Assembly (NCBI GenBank): GCA_018303505.1
Contig: JAGVYA010000020.1
Coordinates: forward strand, 97-64,096
Length of the DNA stretch: 64,000 nt
Direction: 5' to 3'
From: Candidatus Woesearchaeota archaeon
Lineage (GTDB): Archaea > Nanobdellota > Nanobdellia > Woesearchaeales > GW2011-AR4
A program made the translations under genes and the position numbers. A model generated the notes under the pieces. The model did no database searches, was not told the origin of the DNA, and worked only from the letters and a program-made list of their open reading frames with translations. Shown one piece after another: positions 376 through 60,552 of this stretch; the first letter of the stretch is position 1; every line of letters starts with the position of its first letter.

Positions 376-855
376 TTATTTCTTATTCAATTCTGGCTCT
401 CTACCTAACTCCATTTTAATCATGGCTAATATTTCAAATTCTAACAATGCAATCCTTCCCATGGTTTGTAAATCTTGATAGTCTCGAGTTATTTTATCAA
501 CATTGCATTTTTTAGGGATTGCCGCCACAAACAATCGTTCGCCATCGTTCCATTTAGGATAGGGAATATTATTTTTGATCTCTTTAAACAAACGATTTGC
601 ACCACTATGTCCATAGCCTCTTTTTATCCCACTATCAAATTGATTTAATCTTCCAATAAGTCCGGCTCTCGAGGTAGTCATACCTACATAATAGATATCA
701 TGAATATCTACTTTTTTACCTTCCACTTGGTTCTTAGTTTTAGCAACTACATAAACTCCTGGAAATTGATTATCTTTAACATTAAAGCGATTTTCCCATT
801 TAACCCAAGTTAAAGTTTCTAATTCTTCTTTTATTTCTTTAAGTCTATTACTCAT
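376..855 (-). CDS. GIY-YIG nuclease-domain protein (159 aa)
   Basis: Track ORF 376..999 trimmed to the internal Met (MSNRLKEIK) because the upstream 48 codons run through a tRNA gene. FPGVYVV...IYYVGMTTS...RLNQF fits GIY-YIG motif layout. Confidence 0.6.
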   Translation of the reverse strand: MSNRLKEIKEELETLTWVKWENRFNVKDNQFPGVYVVAKTKNQVEGKKVDIHDIYYVGMTTSRAGLIGRLNQFDSGIKRGYGHSGANRLFKEIKNNIPYPKWNDGERLFVAAIPKKCNVDKITRDYQDLQTMGRIALLEFEILAMIKMELGREPELNKK

Positions 856-868
856 TTTACAAATAAAG

Positions 869-1032
869 GGCGGCAAGGGAGAATCGAACTCCCGCCAAGC
901 GGGTACTGCATTCGGGACTGTGAGCTGGTGAGCGAGTTTCTCGCGAACCTCGCATGTCACTGTCCCGCAAGGTGTCAACGGACTTTGCCGTTGTTCCACA
1001 GCCGCCTATTCTGCCATTAAACTATTGCCACC
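869..1032 (-). tRNA. tRNA-His(GUG) with 92-nt intron at canonical 37/38
   Basis: Cloverleaf by eye. G-1 plus acceptor GTGGCAA/TTGCCGC with discriminator C. D arm GTTT-AATGGCA-GAAT. Anticodon stem GGCGG/CCGCT, anticodon GTG at 997-999. T arm GGGAG-TTCGATT-CTCCC. Intron about 904..995 has bulge GGA, 4-bp helix CTGT/GCAG, bulge TAC. CCA not encoded. Confidence 0.75.
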
Positions 1033-1125
1033 ATAGATATTAGGATATAAAATCAGATTATAAAGATTGTGGATTTAAATTTGAATAAAATTTATAAATA
1101 ATAAATATACATAAACAAGCTTTTT

Positions 1126-1200
1126 GAGGCAACCTGGGAGGTGATGCTCACTTCGGTGGGTGTTGCTTACAAGAATCTTCGGATTCAAAAATCCAGGCCT
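1126..1200. other. small GC-rich structured element with two UUCG-capped hairpins, function unknown
   Basis: CTCAC-TTCG-GTGGG and GAATC-TTCG-GATTC hairpins enclosed by CCTGG...CCAGG. Lies between tRNA-His and rps13. Confidence 0.25.
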
Positions 1201-1324
1201 AGACAAAAAAATCAGTAACCTTTTTAAATGACCATATTATCCCAATTCTATTGCCCGAGTTCATATAAGAGCGTTTCTAGGGTTTTAAAACACGATACGC
1301 TATTTTCTCGTGGCTTTATGTATT

Positions 1325-1373
1325 GGCGAGCAATGCGGCGAGCCTAAAATTTGTGCTGAAGGCACGGATTGAA
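1325..1373. repeat. short half-copy of the GC-rich intergenic repeat family (right-end module)
   Basis: ggcgag...aaaatttgtgctgaaggcacggattgaa matches the right ends of the copies at 4133, 25613, 31473 and 60552. Confidence 0.5.
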
Positions 1374-1398
1374 AATTCAAATTCAAAAATAATAAAAA

Positions 1399-1890
1399 AT
1401 GACTGAACCAGAGCAATCAAAGCAAGAACTAAAATATTTTGTAAGAATTGCGAACACAGACCTAGATGGAAATAAGCCTATTCAGCATGCTTTGATAAAG
1501 ATAAAGGGCATAAGCTTCATGTTTTCTAATGCTGTGTTGAATGTTGCGGATATTGAAAAAACCAAAAAGGCAGGCTACCTGGAGGATAATGAAGCAGCTA
1601 AAATTGATGAGGTTATAAAGGATCCTTCAAAGTTTGGAATTCCATCTTGGCTTTTCAACAGAAAAAGTGACCCTGAAGACAATACAAACAGGCACTTGAC
1701 AGGCCCGATTTTGACTTTCACCCAAGATAATGACATAAAAATGATGAAGAAGATAAAGTCATACAAAGGAATAAGGCACTCATTGGGGCTGCCTGTAAGG
1801 GGCCAAAGAACAAAATCAAACTTCAGGAAAAACAAAGGAAAGGTTATGGGAGTCAAGAAAAAAGAAGGCTCAAAAGCAGGAAGGGTATAA
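1399..1890 (+). CDS. rps13: 30S ribosomal protein uS13
   Basis: YFVRIANTDLDGNKPIQHALIKIKGI N-terminus and basic C-tail; position in the archaeal uS13-uS4-uS11-RpoD cluster. Confidence 0.95.
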   Translation: MTEPEQSKQELKYFVRIANTDLDGNKPIQHALIKIKGISFMFSNAVLNVADIEKTKKAGYLEDNEAAKIDEVIKDPSKFGIPSWLFNRKSDPEDNTNRHLTGPILTFTQDNDIKMMKKIKSYKGIRHSLGLPVRGQRTKSNFRKNKGKVMGVKKKEGSKAGRV

Positions 1891-1892
1891 TG

Positions 1893-2025
1893 CCGCAAAT
1901 CACTGAGATGCGAGTGAGCAGTGAATTTGCGAAAGCTCGACCTGCTTGCGAGAACGCGAGCTCGCGTTCAACTCTTTCGCTCGCTTATGTCACAGCGAAC
2001 TCGCTCACAATTGTCTGATTCGCGG
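1893..2025. repeat. nested GC-rich palindromic repeat in the rps13-rps4 spacer
   Basis: Outer arms ccgcaaatcactgagatgcgagtgagc / gcgaactcgctcacaattgtctgattcgcgg match the hairpin elements at 32551-32675 and 14691-14750. The 75-nt interior (1920-1994) matches the core at 22381-22445. Confidence 0.7.
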
Positions 2026-2055
2026 ACATTTCCAAAATCAGGAGATTTTTGAAAA

Positions 2056-2580
2056 ATGGGAGACCAAAAAAAACAAAGAAAGAAATTTACAACTCCAAGT
2101 CATCCGTGGCAGAAGGAAAGAATAGCTGCGGAAAAAGAAGTATTAAAGCAGTATGGCTTGCGAAGGAAATACGAAGTATGGAAAATGGATTCGATGCTTA
2201 AAAAATTTCTCCACAGGGCAAAAACAATTATCGGGGAAAGAACACAGCAGTCAGAGCTGGAAAAGAAGCAGTTATTGGACAGGCTCTATTTATTGGGTTT
2301 GCTAAAAAAAGACTCAAAGGTTGAAGATATCTTAAATCTTACATTAAAAAATATTCTGGAGAGAAGATTGCAGACATTGATATGCAGGAGACAAATGGCA
2401 AAAACTATGCTTCAGGCAAGGCAATTCATCACGCATGAGCATATAGCGGTTGGCAGCAAAAAAATAACAAATCCATCGTACCTTGTTTCAATTGAAGAAG
2501 AGCCTCAGATTAAACTGGTTCGTGCTATGCAATTAATAGATAATACAAAAGAGCAAAAAGCAGAAAAGGTAAACCAATAA
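2056..2580 (+). CDS. rps4: 30S ribosomal protein uS4
   Basis: [39 protein letters not shown] and an S4 RNA-binding region; cluster context. Confidence 0.95.
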
Positions 2581-2584
2581 TAAA

Positions 2585-2983
2585 ATGGAGCAGCGCCAAT
2601 CAAGATGGGGAATTGCGCATATTTATGCGTCATACAACAACACAATAATCCATATAACAGATATAACAGGAACTGAAACACTGGCTGTTGGAAGTGGCGG
2701 CATGGTTGTTAAGAGCGACAGAATGGAAGGCTCTCCAACTGCTGCAATGATTGCTGCAAAAAAAGCTGCTGAAATTGCAATGGACAAGGGCATAACTGGA
2801 ATTCATGTTAAGATAAAAGCTCCAGGCGGCCATAACGGACCGACTAGCCCTGGCCCAGGAGCGCAGGCTGCAATAAGGTCATTGTCAAGAATGGGGCTGA
2901 AGATTGGAATCATAGAGGAAGTAACGCCTTTGCCGCATGACGGCTGCAGAAAAAAAGGCGGCAAACGAGGAAGAAGGGTTTGA
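2585..2983 (+). CDS. rps11: 30S ribosomal protein uS11
   Basis: [27 protein letters not shown]...[11 protein letters not shown]; cluster context. Confidence 0.95.
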
Positions 2984-3793: not shown

Positions 3794-3811
3794 TCCCCCA
3801 ATGATAATTAT

Positions 3812-3943
3812 GCGGGGGTGGCAGAGCCTGGTCAATTTCCGCAAGGAAGGCCAAATGCACTAGGTTGAGGGCCTAGTCCAAATGCACTAGGTTGAGGGCC
3901 TAGTCCCTAAGTGGGTGCGCGTGTTCAAATCACGTCCCCCGCA
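3812..3943 (+). tRNA. tRNA-Leu(GAG) with 17-nt D-loop intron and an internal 27-nt tandem duplication
   Basis: Acceptor GCGGGGG/CCCCCGC plus A. D arm GCA..AGCCTGGTCAA..TGC. Anticodon arm CTAGG-TTGAGGG-CCTAG. Long variable arm CCC-TAAGT-GGG. T arm GCGTG-TTCAAAT-CACGT. Length is 132 nt against about 88 expected. The extra 17 nt are at about 3836-3852 and the extra 27 nt at 3880-3906. Confidence 0.75.
3853..3906 (+). repeat. perfect tandem duplication 2 x 27 nt inside tRNA-Leu
   Basis: aaatgcactaggttgagggcctagtcc at 3853-3879 and again at 3880-3906, duplicating the D-stem 3' strand and the whole anticodon arm. Confidence 0.95.
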
Positions 3944-3979
3944 TTTCAAAATTAAAATTATAAAAAACGAGATAAAAAA

Positions 3980-4133
3980 TCAATCCGTCGCTTCGCGACA
4001 AAAGTTACACTCGGCAAAAATTTTTCCTGCCAATAATTTTTGCCTCGTATTTATTCAATGCATGCACAGGCGAGCCCGAGTGATATGGCAGAGAAGCGAG
4101 GGCGAGCACAAAAATTTGGCGAAGCCGAATTGA
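3980..4133. repeat. full-length copy of the GC-rich TIR/hairpin element (MITE-like)
   Basis: Termini tcaatccg...cgaattga. Terminal hairpins GTCGC-TTC-GCGAC and GGC-GAA-GCC. Internal hairpin GGCAAAAATT/AATTTTTGCC. Colinear with 25457-25613 and 53442-53650. Confidence 0.75.
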
Positions 4134-4868: not shown

Positions 4869-5354
4869 ATGATAATCGACGCTAAAGACGCAATTTTAGG
4901 AAGGCTAAGCAGCTATGTTGCAAAGCAGGTTTTGCTAGGCAGCAAAGTAGATGTTATAAACTGCGAGGAATGTAGGCTAAGCAGCTATGTTGCAAAGCAG
5001 GTTTTGCTAGGCAGCAAAGTAGATGTTATAAACTGCGAGGAATGTGTTATTAGCGGAAGAAAACATGCAATATTAAATGAGTACATAAGAAGGCTTCATA
5101 GAAAGGCTCCAACAAAAGCTCCTTATTTCTACAGAAGGCCTGACATGCTTGTCAAAAGAACAATAAGGGGCATGATTCCATTCAAAAGAGCGAGAGGCAG
5201 GGACGCTTTCAAAAATGTAAAATGCTATATTGGCGTTCCTGAAAATTTAAAGAACGAAAAGGCTTTGACTGTTGGAAGCGCAGGGGTTGAGAAGCTGCAC
5301 TCTGCAGATTATTTAAAAGTCAAGGACGTATGCAAAGCAGTAGGCACAAAATGA
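4869..5354 (+). CDS. rpl13: 50S ribosomal protein uL13 carrying an in-frame 24-aa duplication
   Basis: MIIDAKDAILGRLSSYVAKQVLLGSKVDVINCEEC then RLSSYVAKQVLLGSKVDVINCEEC repeated, then VISGRKH...; uL13 N-terminal pattern. Confidence 0.9.
   Translation: MIIDAKDAILGRLSSYVAKQVLLGSKVDVINCEECRLSSYVAKQVLLGSKVDVINCEECVISGRKHAILNEYIRRLHRKAPTKAPYFYRRPDMLVKRTIRGMIPFKRARGRDAFKNVKCYIGVPENLKNEKALTVGSAGVEKLHSADYLKVKDVCKAVGTK
4902..5045 (+). repeat. perfect tandem duplication 2 x 72 nt inside rpl13
   Basis: Unit aggctaagcagctatgttgcaaagcaggttttgctaggcagcaaagtagatgttataaactgcgaggaatgt at 4902-4973 and 4974-5045. Confidence 0.95.
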
Positions 5355-14469: not shown

Positions 14470-14750
14470 CAAAAACCACCCATCATAGATGGGTGGCATG
14501 AAGCGGAAGCTTAATTATAGGCTTGAATTGATGGTGGTTTTTGAGCATCTCAAAAATGTCCTACATTTTTGATGATCATCGGAAATCTTTTGATTTCCGA
14601 GATGCTCGAGAATATACCATCTTGTACAAGCACATCTGACTTACGTCCATTAGTCATATGTCGGTAAATGCTTTGCATTTCCGAGCACACTCGAAAATCT
14701 GTCGAATGTGAGCGAGTTCGCGAGCTCACTCGCATCTCACTGATTTTTGA
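14470..14750. repeat. array of GC-rich hairpins (same superfamily as 32551-32675)
   Basis: CCACCCATC-ATA-GATGGGTGG, CAAAAACCACC...GGTGGTTTTTG, TCGGAAATC-TTTT-GATTTCCGA and CGGTAAATGC-TTT-GCATTTCCG. Long hairpin at 14691-14750 with a GTGAGCGAG..CTCACTCGC core. Confidence 0.7.
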
Positions 14751-14775
14751 TGGACTAATGGTATATTTTCGACAT

Positions 14776-15614
<839 letters not shown>

Positions 15615-22313: not shown

Positions 22314-22342
22314 TTTGAAAATTATTGACTAAAAACAAAATT

Positions 22343-22457
22343 TTATCTGCCTTCGGTAAATTTTTGGCTCGCCAGTGAGATGCGAAAGCTCGACCTGCAT
22401 GCGAGAACGCTCGCATGCTCGCGTTCATCTATTTCGCTCGCTTAGCTACCTGCTCGC
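22343..22457. repeat. GC-rich repeat copy, inverted orientation
   Basis: tatctgccttcggtaaattttt resembles the reverse complement of the tttgccgaaggcggattgaa end. Core gatgcgaaagctcgacctgcatgcgagaacgc..gctcgcgttca..tttcgctcgctta matches 1930-1990. Confidence 0.65.
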
Positions 22458-23576
22458 CTATTTATTGTTTAATATTCTTACCAATTGGTTTATTTGGATA
22501 TTGCTCCTGATACCTTCTCCCTTAAAATGAGTATTGCTAACCTGATACCTTGATTTCTTAATTTTATTCATAATTTTTTCTTTTTTTTGCAAATTTTTAA
22601 TTTTATTTCTTTCACAAATGTCATGCAGGTCATAAAATCCAATAGCATGTATTTTTGATTCTTCTTTAATTGTTTGCAGAAATTTAATTAGTTGTTTATT
22701 ACTATTAAAAATTTTATTTTTAAATGCGTTTTTATGTATTTTATCAACTAAATTTTTATCCCATAAATTCCCAAGCCACATTGGCCCTGCATCATTAAGC
22801 ATTCCGTGCAATTTCAATGCTTCATCAACCTTATTCTTTCCTTTTATATTTTTTAAAAAAACCCTCATGTAATGCTCTTTAGAATAAGAATATATTGGAG
22901 TAAGCGCTTTGTCATACTGTGCGGCAATTAGCTGTATTTTTCTTATCAAAATTCTTAATCCACTTTCATGCATTATTGCATCCTTCTTAGGCATTGCCCA
23001 GTATTTCCTGATGCATGCCTTTGGAAATGTGCCGCATAATGCAGATGTGTCGGTAGCTGTAACTGCAAGTATGCCGTCTCTTGCCAATCTTTTGCATGCG
23101 CTGTCCAGAAATGCTCCGGGATAACCAAACGGGTCAATGTCAATGTAATCAAAGCCTGTGGAATTAAGCAGAAACAGATTTGCATCTTCATTACTTAAAA
23201 ATACTTTATTTTTAAGTTCCACCGAAACAAAGTTTCTGTAGGGTGCAATTAAAATTTTTTCATTATTTGTATATTGAATCTTATTTAATGCTAAATTTTG
23301 TTTTATCAATTTCGTTGAATCATTACTATAGTCATTAATATATATTTTTTTTATTTTATTTTTTCTTAGTTCTTTCAAAAATCTAATGCTTCTTACACCA
23401 GTCGCTGCCAATGGGTCTGCTATCTGCAGATTATTCTTATTTATAGAATTTAACAACAAAACAGAAATGTCTCTATTTAAGCGCATTGCAGGATTGTAGA
23501 AAACCCCCATTTCTTTTGATACCTTATCTGCTTTTGGTACTTTCAGTTTGATTGAGCCTTCTGTAATAATCCTCAT
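22458..23576 (-). CDS. trm1: tRNA (guanine26-N2)-dimethyltransferase
   Basis: FYNPAMRLNRDISVLLL, DPLAATGVRSIRF, IDIDPFGYPGAFLDSA. Confidence 0.9.
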   Translation of the reverse strand: MRIITEGSIKLKVPKADKVSKEMGVFYNPAMRLNRDISVLLLNSINKNNLQIADPLAATGVRSIRFLKELRKNKIKKIYINDYSNDSTKLIKQNLALNKIQYTNNEKILIAPYRNFVSVELKNKVFLSNEDANLFLLNSTGFDYIDIDPFGYPGAFLDSACKRLARDGILAVTATDTSALCGTFPKACIRKYWAMPKKDAIMHESGLRILIRKIQLIAAQYDKALTPIYSYSKEHYMRVFLKNIKGKNKVDEALKLHGMLNDAGPMWLGNLWDKNLVDKIHKNAFKNKIFNSNKQLIKFLQTIKEESKIHAIGFYDLHDICERNKIKNLQKKEKIMNKIKKSRYQVSNTHFKGEGIRSNIQINQLVRILNNK

Positions 23577-25456: not shown

Positions 25457-25613
25457 TTCAATCCGTTGCCTTAGGCAACCAAATTTACACTCAGCGAAAA
25501 TTGTTTTGCCACTAATTTTCGCCTCAAATTTATTAAATGAATAAATCGGCGAGTTGTCGCGCAATGGCAGAAAAGCGACAACGAGCACTAAAGTTTGCCG
25601 AAGGCGGATTGAA
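25457..25613. repeat. full-length copy of the GC-rich TIR/hairpin element
   Basis: ttcaatccg...cggattgaa termini. Hairpins GTTGCC-TTA-GGCAAC, GCGAAAATT/AATTTTCGC and GCC-GAA-GGC. Confidence 0.75.
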
Positions 25614-30946: not shown

Positions 30947-31360
30947 TTATTCTTCTTTATTTTCAATGATAACACCTATTCTATTCTTTTTTTCTTTTAA
31001 AAAACTAATTAAATGCCTATCCAAGTCAAATGCGGCCTTATTTGCCCTTATTGCAAATGTCCTTTCAGAAACGAAATTAGTCTTTCTAATTACGAGTTCC
31101 TTACTGCTGTTGAAGCTTGGATTAAGTTCTGCACTAACTGTTTCCTGATATTTTTTATCCTCTGATGCAATTTTTATTATTATTCGATTATTTTTAGAAT
31201 CTTTAATGAATTCCTTTATTTTGATTAAATCAAAATCAGCTTTAACTGCAACAATGCAGTCTCCTTTCAAGCTGACTTCTTTGTCTTTTGTAAATTCTAG
31301 TGTTGTTTTATGAGTTGCTAATATGTTTGGATGACCATAAGCATTGAATTTGTAAATCAT
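30947..31360 (-). CDS. DUF371-family protein
   Basis: AYGHPNILATHKTTLEFTKD...GDCIVAV pattern. Confidence 0.55.
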   Translation of the reverse strand: MIYKFNAYGHPNILATHKTTLEFTKDKEVSLKGDCIVAVKADFDLIKIKEFIKDSKNNRIIIKIASEDKKYQETVSAELNPSFNSSKELVIRKTNFVSERTFAIRANKAAFDLDRHLISFLKEKKNRIGVIIENKEE

Positions 31361-31381
31361 TTTATTTGTTTAAATATAATA

Positions 31382-31473
31382 GGCGAGGAGGTTTAATGTC
31401 AGTGAGTTGGTGAGCGAGTCTCTCGCGAGTCTCGCATGTCACTAGCACAAGAGTTTGCCGAAGGCATATTGAA
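31382..31473. repeat. half-length GC-rich repeat (right-end module)
   Basis: ggcgaggagg..cagtgagttggtgagcgagtctctcgcgagtctcgcatgtcactagcac..tttgccgaaggcatattgaa; near-identical layout to 60463-60552. Confidence 0.75.
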
Positions 31474-32497: not shown

Positions 32498-32550
32498 AAT
32501 ACTATGTTATATATGTTTTTTTAAAAATCTTATCAAAAACCTTGGTTCAT

Positions 32551-32675
32551 CGAAAATCTATGATTTTCGGAGTGTTCGGAAATGCGAAGCATTTGCCGAC
32601 ATTTGGGAATGCTCGGAAATCTGTGAAATGCGAGTGAGCTAGTTGCGAACTCGCTCACATTCGACTGATTTCCGA
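32551..32675. repeat. array of three GC-rich hairpins
   Basis: CGAAAATC-TAT-GATTTTCG and CGGAAATGC-GAA-GCATTTGCCG. Long hairpin TCGGAAATC..gcgagtgagc tagtt gcgaactcgctcac..GATTTCCGA. Confidence 0.7.
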
Positions 32676-32719
32676 CATTTTTAGAAATCCTTATATACTA
32701 ATCCATTTTAATTTCTATA

Positions 32720-32935
32720 ATGCCAAAAGACATAAGCAAGGACGAGCAAGTTGGATTTCACAAGGGCTCTTTGACAACGCTTGCAAAGGAAAGGGAAGAA
32801 ATGCTAAAAATATTGTCTATAGTAGAGCAGTTAATGCAGATGCATATAAAAAGCCTGCAAGACCTGGGAGTTGACTTGCAAAAGACAGCTCAGCAAACAA
32901 AGACAAAAAAACCAATTGAAGACGTTTTAAGGTAA
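32720..32935 (+). CDS. small hypothetical protein (71 aa)
   Basis: Track ORF with helical, coiled-coil-like composition. Confidence 0.4.
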   Translation: MPKDISKDEQVGFHKGSLTTLAKEREEMLKILSIVEQLMQMHIKSLQDLGVDLQKTAQQTKTKKPIEDVLR

Positions 32936-33973: not shown

Positions 33974-34319
33974 GGGAGGACTCTGCCGGGAAGCTAGCAC
34001 TCTCCTGTCAGCGCAAACGTGCTTTAGGCGCGGTGAAGCTCTTGAAGCAGCTTGAGTCTTTGCATTTAGTCTTGCTGCTGGCGTAGAAGCTCTGCCTTAT
34101 AGGGCTTGTGCTTTTGAAAATCCGTAAGGTCTGGAAAGAAATCAACTGCGAAATCAGTTGACACTTTGTGGGACATAAAGTCCCACGTGCTCACTACGTT
34201 CGCAAAATTGACTTAAAGCAGCGGTAATCTTGAGCATTGGTGCTTATGAGTAACAGAGTGGAGTCGGTAACAAGGTAGCTGATTGCAATAACTTTTGCCC
34301 ATTCTTGAGCATGTCCTCC
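33974..34319 (+). ncRNA. unclassified structured RNA candidate (SRP RNA or RNase P RNA are the leading guesses)
   Basis: GC-enriched non-coding island in AT-rich DNA. GGAGGAC (33975-81) pairs with GTCCTCC (34313-19). Long-range helix 34050-63 with 34202-19. Hairpins CAACTG-CGAAAT-CAGTTG and GTGGGAC-ATAAA-GTCCCAC. AGGTCT-GGAA-AGA and CCTGTCA motifs. G-U pairs favour the plus strand. Confidence 0.5.
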
Positions 34320-34336
34320 TACTTAATTTTGATGAA

Positions 34337-53441: not shown

Positions 53442-53650
53442 TTCAATACGTTGCTTCGCAACAAAAAATAGTCTCGGCGAAAATTCTCCTGCCAATGAAT
53501 TTTCGCCTCGCAATTAATTCAATATTAATGAATAAATAGGCGAGGCTTCGCGAGTAGATGAGCGAGCGAGAGGCGAGCTCTCGCATTCGACTGGCAGAAC
53601 ATCGAAGCCTAGCACCATAATTTGTGAGCGTAAGCGAACAGATGATTGAA
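53442..53650. repeat. full-length, expanded copy of the GC-rich TIR/hairpin element
   Basis: ttcaatacg...gattgaa termini. GTTGC-TTC-GCAAC and GGCGAAAATTC/GAATTTTCGCC hairpins. Enlarged gagcgagcgagaggcgagctctcgc core. Confidence 0.7.
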
Positions 53651-60433: not shown

Positions 60434-60462
60434 TTTAACCAATTTTTTATTTTACAATGTAT

Positions 60463-60552
60463 GGCGAGGCGGAGCAGTGAGATGGTGAGCGAGTTTCGAC
60501 GAGCGAACCTCGCATGTCACTAGCACTAAATTTTGCCGAAGGCGGATTGAAA
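60463..60552. repeat. half-length GC-rich repeat (right-end module)
   Basis: ggcgaggcgg..cagtgagatggtgagcgagtttcgacgagcgaacctcgcatgtcactagcac..tttgccgaaggcggattgaa. Confidence 0.75.

Follow-up and report, generated by a model that had tools for sequence, protein, structure and literature searches.

The histidine tRNA gene of the DNA stretch analysed here (64,000 nt, hereafter the window) appears, with a probability that we put at roughly 65%, to carry a bulge-helix-bulge (BHB) type intron of two hairpins, in one of which a 43-nt hairpin of a mobile family replaced a 5-nt loop after the lineage had split from its closest sampled relative. In this reading the intron, at position 37/38, would be of the archaeal, protein-spliced kind, and the terminal loop of its hairpin 2 would have given way to a 43-nt non-coding module (the core), the family of which would spread through Woesearchaeota genomes and usually settle in the loop of an existing hairpin. 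The insert would only lengthen the distal hairpin, leaving undisturbed the geometry of anticodon stem, 4-bp helix and bulge that is read by the endonuclease; the core would leave with the excised intron at no cost to the tRNA, and selection would then purge one of its orientations from stable RNA genes. The locus would record, dated and at base resolution, how a repeat was gained within an intron of which close relatives keep the unmodified form.

The window is a segment of an archaeal chromosome with 34% G+C, an S13-S4-S11-RpoD-L18e-L13-S9 operon and an archaeal SRP RNA. Proteins matching its S4 and RpoD with at least 90% identity bear the names Candidatus Woesearchaeota or Nanoarchaeota archaeon. 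The tRNA-His(GUG) gene lies on the minus strand at 869-1031, with the 5' exon at 996-1031, the 3' exon at 869-903 and a genome-encoded G-1 at position 1032, and the joined exons form a complete tRNA. An earlier sequence-only reading of the stretch had called this gene, and had named failure of the call as a reason to give up its interpretation; the call stood, with the Rfam tRNA model scoring 40.5 bits on the minus strand of 869-1031 (gathering score 29) and placing a 95-nt insert in the anticodon loop, and with ARAGORN, when introns were allowed (-i), returning tRNA-His(gtg) c[868,1031] i(38,92). The 92-nt intron had been placed at 904-995, and these bounds proved exact when the gene was split into exons and intron at GGCGGCUGUGG / ... 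/ CCCGCUU, at the canonical 37/38 site. ARAGORN at default settings gave no tRNA-His call in the window, and long, non-canonical introns like that of tRNA-His conceal tRNA genes from default gene finders. A tRNA-Leu(GAG) gene at 3811-3944, which has a short non-canonical insert near the D-loop, was likewise missed by default ARAGORN and by Rfam; its anticodon arm is also duplicated in tandem (27 nt, perfect; 3851-3906), a feature that was seen in the window only, contigs L001-L003 being without it, and that may be a true variant or an artefact of assembly. In the ribosomal protein L13 gene a 72-nt unit is perfectly repeated in tandem (4902-5045), which doubles 24 amino acids; this duplication is not found in contig L117 and may also have arisen in assembly.

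Reading along the tRNA strand (minus), the intron begins with hairpin 1 (976-993, CAACGG-CAAAGU-CCGUUG), which was recognized from invariant columns across six introns or insertions (alignment A2) and from a regular-expression survey, and continues through the linker ACACCUUG (968-975), the two together forming a conserved backbone module. Hairpin 2 (913-967) follows, identified by folding and by comparison with relatives, in which the core is held by a clamp of CGGGAC (962-967) and GUCCCG (913-918), the stem that the sequence-only reading had described; the hairpin folds at -26.3 kcal/mol (z = -4.45). In the relatives hairpin 2 has the same clamp stem around a 5-nt loop.

Archaeal BHB introns present two 3-nt bulges with a 4-bp helix between them at the splice sites (hBHBh'). 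In the predicted fold of the pre-tRNA the anticodon stem is kept, a 4-bp helix CUGU/GCAG is formed, and a 3-nt bulge UAC (UA/C) lies at the 3' splice site; a 5' bulge GG/A can be drawn and the outer helix h' is not evident, so that the motif is a relaxed BHB at best. The fold suggests that the intron is excised by the splicing endonuclease, and because the core lengthens its hairpin away from the splice sites, the geometry presented to the endonuclease should stay intact. The core is probably neutral within this intron, and the earlier proposal that an intron is a safe harbour for it would be compatible with the data. In other archaea the tRNA-Trp intron carries a C/D box sRNA, in which the C box (RUGAUGA) and D box (CUGA) form a K-turn. 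The tRNA-His intron resembles that case as a structured RNA module inside a tRNA intron but differs from it in K-turn geometry, which is absent, and in having neither box anywhere in its 92 nt, and a C/D box sRNA was rejected; a scan of Rfam for known RNA families gave nothing at the gathering threshold or at E values up to 5 besides the tRNA and a sub-threshold SRP RNA.

The inserted core occupies 919-961 (minus strand), is matched by covariance model R1 at 916-972 (39 bits, E 2.9e-8), and has the structure GUGA / 3-nt bulge CAU / GCGAG-G-UUC-GCGA-GAA-A-CUCGC / UCAC, plus CAGCUCACA, which assigns it to the subtype termed A-type below. The plus-strand string by which it had been described earlier was found at 919-963, and its reported recurrence at 31405-31445 and 60475-60520 was borne out by a BLAST search of 861-1040 against the window, which matched 31402-31443 (90.5% over 42 nt, E 2.3e-9) and, around a loop 3 nt longer, 60477-60497 (95%) and 60503-60521 (100%). 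The sub-motifs GGTGAGCGAG and CTCGCATGTCACT occur 7 times each against 0.6 and 0.5 expected from shuffled sequence, an excess of about tenfold, and the three A-type copies of the window carry compensatory changes in the inner stem (UUC/GAA, CUC/GAG and UUCG/CGAA). The E-values, the shuffle controls and the compensatory changes rule out chance or low-complexity similarity.

Five strong and three weak, degenerate copies were found in the window with R1. The other two A-type copies, at 31397-31454 (minus strand, 38.4 bits) and 60473-60532 (minus strand, 42.6 bits), lie within composite elements at 31381-31473 and 60462-60551, the former having the form GGCGAG...GAGCAC...GATTGAA and lying some 20 nt before gene 30947-31360 starts. 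A second subtype, B-type, is represented at 14696-14752 (minus strand, 62.8 bits), at the tip of a GAAAATC/GATTTT host hairpin in a multi-hairpin element of about 14650-14790, and at 32611-32670 (plus strand, 65.9 bits), also in a host hairpin; arrays of hairpins UGUCGG-(A)AAU..AUUUCCGA-GCA were noticed at about 14650-14790 and at 32540-32720. The host element of the 14696 copy, without a core, was found in the T-loop intron of the tRNA-His gene of L122 (4768-4828), so that further modules are common to tRNA introns and intergenic elements. A 165-nt intergenic element between S13 and S4 (1891-2055, plus strand; weak R1 match at 1895-1981) also contains a B-type core, the tip of which holds a further nested module, and in this element the loop of a small hairpin displays AGGAG just before the S4 ATG. 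In L117 and L122, S13 stop and S4 start are separated by only 1-3 nt and the element is missing; these two contigs are also without an element found upstream of S13 in the window, and both elements are other lineage-specific insertions of related modules.

A second repeat family was noticed in the window, built of GGCGAG, a variable hairpin, (G)AGCAC, WAANUUUG, a small covarying hairpin and then GGAUUGAA. The loop of the variable hairpin is often AUGGCAGARAA and sometimes contains the core, and the stems of the small hairpin are GCC/GGC, GGC/GCC, GUGC/GCAC or GUUGCC/GGCAAC. Copies are located on the plus strand at 1325-1373, 4068-4133, 25546-25613, 31381-31473, 53538-53650 and 60462-60551, and on the minus strand at 3972-4060, about 22340-22458, 25457-25523 and 53444-53515. 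Those at 1325, 4068 and 25546 end some 30-40 nt upstream of a start codon, and no downstream start codon was seen for those at 31381 and 60462; the copy upstream of S13 is missing in L117. The family may be a mobile promoter or leader element.

Comparison of tRNA-His introns among relatives, which the sequence-only reading had proposed as a check, was made by scanning metagenome contigs for the final 20 nt of the 5' exon. Thirteen contigs were recovered, 12 of them with a tRNA-His gene, L128 being a chance match in an unrelated high-GC contig and L119 being identical to the window. Among the 12 contigs, which have the same 5' exon, about ten different intron configurations were found: the intron at 37/38 is missing from L116, short introns, 13-21 nt long, occur in L117, L118 and L124, and L116, L120, L122, L123, L124 and L126 have an additional intron in the T-loop (29-130 nt), with content unrelated between lineages. 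In L125 and L127 the 5' exons are identical to that of the window and the intron is that of the window without the core, namely AACAACGGCGAAGTCCGTTGACACCTTGCGGGAC-ATGAA-GTCCCGAATGCAGTA (54 nt; also given as AACAACGGCGAAGUCCGUUGACACCUUGCGGGAC-AUGAA-GUCCCGAAUGCAGUA), the same loop containing 5 nt (AUGAA or AUAAA) in these relatives and 43 nt (919-961) in the window. The closest relative found is L125, about 90% identical in the S13 and msrB flanks (L127, about 80-86%), and a derived 3'-exon variant, CCCGCUU, is common to the window and L125 alone. With two relatives lacking the core and a derived exon base shared with the nearer one, a single gain in the lineage of the window is the shortest history, and the comparison supports insertion of the core into the hairpin-2 loop of a pre-existing intron, one of the two origins that had been suggested for the repeat in the intron. 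A clean junction of empty site plus insert is not visible at the intron site, where 3 nt of the old loop were replaced rather than flanked.

The intron as a whole is also variable, one of two forms being found in contigs with 98-99.97% identity to the window around the gene. Allele A (92 nt) is present in the window, L002, L003 and L119, and allele B (111 nt), which is unrelated to allele A, is found in L001 and L004 at the same site between identical exons. The flanks on either side in L004 are 98-99.8% identical to those of the window, which shows that the intron alone was exchanged. As a dispersed repeat, allele B was matched neither in the window nor across about 0.95 Mb of related loci, and its 3' end resembles the intron of L126. 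An open reading frame of 159 amino acids (376-855, minus strand) was noted 14 nt past the 3' end of the tRNA-His gene; it is missing from L001, L125, L127 and L117, in which msrB directly follows the tRNA, and its presence or absence combines freely with alleles A and B. Its assignment as a GIY-YIG endonuclease was rejected, the resemblance being motif-like by eye only, with no match in Pfam or the PDB.

The backbone of allele A, consisting of hairpin 1 (NNNNG-CAAAGU-CNNNN), the linker ACACCUU and hairpin 2, is not confined to tRNA-His. Within the window it recurs without a core, and with loop AUAAA, as an insertion of about 76 nt at 34136-34212 (plus strand) in helix 8 of the SRP RNA (33974-34320), where it was identified by Rfam alignment, regular expression and alignment A2. 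The Rfam SRP alignment has 85 nt where the model has 8, and the score of 77 bits against a gathering threshold of 96.5 is explained by this insertion, which lies on the 3' side of helix 8 immediately ahead of the conserved AGCAG loop. It is probably an intron; it showed no polymorphism among near-identical strains. The backbone was also found in a tRNA-Pro intron (L113) and in the T-loop intron of tRNA-His in L120, so that homologous intron sequence occupies different RNA genes and positions (tRNA-His 37/38 and T-loop, tRNA-Pro and SRP RNA), as is expected of transposed introns. Elsewhere it stands inverted in front of protein genes, directly before their Shine-Dalgarno sequence and start codon. 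In L083 (1591-2062) and L085 (minus strand, about 4229) the inverted backbone with an A-type core adjoins GGAGG and the ATG of the L7Ae gene, in an L7Ae-S28e operon, and the same arrangement was seen at a gene for a 49-aa zinc-ribbon protein (L108) and at a further gene (L066). The loci in L083 and L066 had at one stage been taken for tRNA-Trp genes, an assignment that was dropped for that of protein-gene 5' leaders with the module inverted.

Members of the backbone family carry an A-type core (window, L083, L085), a B-type core (L049, L066, L113) or none (L120, L125, L127, L108 and the SRP RNA of the window), which requires at least two independent acquisitions of a core in the same loop. The suggestion that introns and repeats share an origin gains a measure of support at one level only: the core needs no such origin, whereas the backbone, two hairpins and a linker, is itself a dispersed module. 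A broader proposal, which we regard as possible but doubtful, is that the protein-spliced introns of Woesearchaeota would be assembled or remodelled from small mobile hairpin modules (backbone and nested core, moving at the DNA or RNA level), creating or reshaping introns wherever the host RNA stays cleavable. This would amount to an archaeal counterpart of the eukaryotic introner elements, and to a direct, observable mechanism of intron gain in archaeal RNA genes.

The same distribution bears on the direction of change in tRNA-His. Were the core ancestral in the intron, the window would retain the old state and L125 and L127 would have lost the core by slippage across its palindrome; long palindromes are easily deleted, part of the core in the window lies between short repeats (GACA...GACA), and presence and absence are patchy over the backbone family. 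That history, which we consider distinctly unlikely, would take two losses in place of one gain, given the two successive relatives without the core and the exon base derived in common with the closer one. In addition, the short loop ACAUAAAGU is common to three distant hosts (L127, the SRP RNA of the window and L108), which indicates a core-less ancestor, and the two core subtypes occupy the same loop in different lineages. Gain of the core by a pre-existing intron is the preferred direction.

Beyond the window the core was sought in species-representative genomes with a 21-base degenerate pattern (GTGAGCGAGT, a gap of 5-30, and CTCGCATNTCAC). Among the matches listed there were more than 109 loci, nearly all in Woesearchaeota or Nanoarchaeota MAGs, some of these mislabelled Methanosarcinales; the bacterial-labelled loci among the matches listed were three, of which two are chance matches in coding sequence and the third, L023, looks like a genuine core copy and is probably in a mis-binned contig. 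No viral contig with the core pattern was found. Covariance model R1 was built from 110 copies (alignment A1), and gave 145 matches in 712 kb of related loci, about one quarter of them lower-scoring matches on the opposite strand to the same copies. On the tRNA strand the base of the hairpin is conserved as GUGA / 3-nt bulge NAU / GCGAG(U)...(A)CUCGC / UCAC, and the tip is variable. The two subtypes read GCGAG-R-YUC-GCGA-GAR-A-CUCGC in the A-type of the intron and GCGAGUGAGC...GCGAACUCGC in the B-type; divergent copies keep their stems by compensatory changes (GCAAG/CUUGC in L058, GCGUG/CACGC in L099, GUGG/CCAC in L086). The copies are mostly intergenic, not intronic. The flanks fold together at -8 kcal/mol or lower for 71% of copies, compared with 25% of mismatched flank pairs (p = 1e-23), so that by this folding measure most copies are predicted to sit at the tip of a longer host hairpin, and cores are nested in other cores in L047, L077 and L086. 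As in MITEs, there are many dispersed copies without coding capacity and there are orthologous empty sites (tRNA-His in L125 and L127; S13-S4 in L117 and L122); a target-site duplication flanking a copy was visible neither at the intron site nor in host hairpins. A Pfam scan of ten window ORFs adjoining elements found no transposase, and literature searches turned up no account of the core family in Woesearchaeota or DPANN, nor of tRNA introns there that bear repeats.

Copies within tRNA genes were located by deleting variable stretches around each core and rerunning ARAGORN, upon which eight tRNAs spanning the deletion appeared: His, Trp(CCA), Pro(GGG), Met(CAT), Pro(CGG), Ile(GAU), Leu(GAG) and Val(GAC). 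The introns are at canonical and non-canonical positions, and the orientation of the core relative to the tRNA is the same in all eight. The same orientation is found for a B-type core at 2393-2452 of L098, inside a Woesearchaeota 16S rRNA gene (1091-2627, minus strand); this core is about 190-230 nt from the 5' end of the 16S rRNA, in the region of helix 9/10 by our reading, and may be an expansion segment or a mini-intron. Random insertion of DNA would not lead to one fixed orientation in tRNA and rRNA hosts, which requires selection or a directional mechanism. With respect to protein genes, the five informative cases in the window all agreed in direction with their neighbours, but 23 co-oriented and 28 opposite copies were counted in relatives, as expected at random, and co-orientation with genes was set aside as chance. 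The hairpin family is clade-wide, with its orientation fixed only inside stable RNA genes.

Constant orientation in the eight tRNA hosts and the one 16S rRNA could mean that the core is a functional RNA module, protein-binding or stabilizing and selected wherever it is present, for example to mark or stabilize excised circular introns or to recruit an RNA-binding protein. The sequence is strongly conserved among genomes whose housekeeping genes are only 75-85% identical, which would equally suit a functional motif, RNA or DNA, and to that extent speaks against mobility. The tRNA strand would form GNRA loops (GCGA or GCAA) in A-type copies and tandem G.A near the tip in B-type copies, and in L083 and L085 the L7Ae gene has copies in its 5' leader; in other archaea L7Ae regulates its own mRNA through a structure in the leader. 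Several observations count against this reading. In RNAfold predictions the strand opposite to the tRNA folds better, on average by 1.3-2.2 kcal/mol, and the GYGAG/CUCRC units of which the core sequence is built allow alternative pairing registers; loops and tandem G.A favour the tRNA strand and folding energy the other, and either of them, if any, may act as RNA. The tip is highly variable, and in some B-type copies Watson-Crick pairs take the place of the tandem G.A. A K-turn or K-loop, the binding site of L7Ae, has tandem sheared G.A pairs adjoining a 3-nt bulge or loop; in the A-type core of the intron G-C and C-G pairs follow the 3-nt bulge and tandem G.A is absent, and no K-turn could be drawn in the L7Ae leaders of L083 and L085. 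With C/D boxes and any fitting Rfam family also lacking, with orientation to protein genes random, and with the same intron present in the closest relatives without the core, a selected function is rather unlikely.

The conserved base of the hairpin raises the question of movement as RNA. On the tRNA strand the helix GUGA/UCAC, the 3-nt bulge NAU and the next helix make half of a BHB, and a second UCAC 3 nt downstream could re-pair after excision, such that the core might be a nested mini-intron that is cut out and rejoined by tRNA endonuclease and ligase, put into other RNAs by reversal of that reaction, and made permanent through reverse transcription and recombination. Its constant orientation in transcribed RNA hosts would agree with this, as would the exchange of the intron alone in L004 between near-identical flanks, which is expected if exon homology guides replacement. 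A canonical nested BHB mini-intron was nonetheless rejected: the second bulge has 7-9 nt instead of 3, and the second UCAC lacks conservation, reading CGAC, UGUC or UACC in many copies. Removal of the core at those sites would not restore the sequence of the empty site, of the intergenic copies half run antisense to the genes beside them, and no reverse transcriptase was seen. Movement through RNA is accordingly very improbable, and we infer that the module moves at the DNA level. Our best guess, by analogy, is that the mover would be a trans-acting enzyme that recognizes a folded hairpin, as for REP, IS200/IS605-type elements or REP-loop transposases; gene conversion between similar host hairpins may contribute.

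Known counterparts of the core family include the bacterial palindromic repeats, among them REP/BIME with their RAYT transposases, the Rickettsia palindromic elements, and IS1397 and ISKpn1, which insert into REP loops. Such repeats are short, imperfect and non-coding, present in tens to hundreds of copies, conserved within a clade, bulged at fixed places and nested at hairpin loops, and the Rickettsia elements also land in RNA and protein genes. The core family resembles REP/BIME-type repeats in these traits, a likeness that does not establish membership in REP/RAYT; it differs in its archaeal host, in the lack of a transposase among the ten ORFs scanned, and in copies within introns predicted to be spliced and within a 16S rRNA gene, where orientation is fixed.

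Evidence for the gain, movement and diversification of archaeal tRNA introns has so far come mainly from similarity among Thermoproteales introns and from one population study. In the Thermoproteales, similar introns recur across tRNA species and positions within the clade (Fujishima et al. 2010, Mol Biol Evol 27:2233, as summarized in PMC4033280). Set beside those, the present introns are alike in that the backbone is found in tRNA-His at 37/38, the tRNA-His T-loop, tRNA-Pro and SRP RNA, and the core in at least eight tRNA species; they are unlike in belonging to a DPANN clade, the Woesearchaeota, in a unit that is modular and nested (core in backbone), in copies that are mostly intergenic, and in an orthologous core-less intron that is available for comparison. 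The population study concerns Caldiarchaeum subterraneum, in which co-occurring, near-identical genomes differ in the intron content of one tRNA gene (Sugahara et al. 2012, PMC3293823) and a 1.8-kb element encoding a recombinase was implicated (PMC3293823). Alleles A (92 nt) and B (111 nt) between identical tRNA-His exons are comparable, the intron here being wholly replaced in co-occurring strains, but the change in tRNA-His involves no coding element: a whole short intron was swapped, and a 43-nt hairpin gained.

Eukaryotic introner elements are derived from transposons, carry splice sites and depend on the spliceosome (PMC11282704). The present elements are like them in being dispersed and non-autonomous, and in being tolerated, or made into introns, through removal by host splicing, here a predicted step; they are unlike them in that the predicted removal relies on an RNA structure read by a protein endonuclease and that the core supplies no splice sites. 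The case brings no new principle, but it is uncommonly clear and open to test, with its modular nesting and its link between tRNA and SRP RNA insertions through a backbone common to both in one genome. The core-less intron of relatives and the core-bearing intron of the window give a before-and-after view of the remodelling of an archaeal intron, and intron turnover in DPANN thereby becomes testable with existing metagenomes and simple biochemistry.
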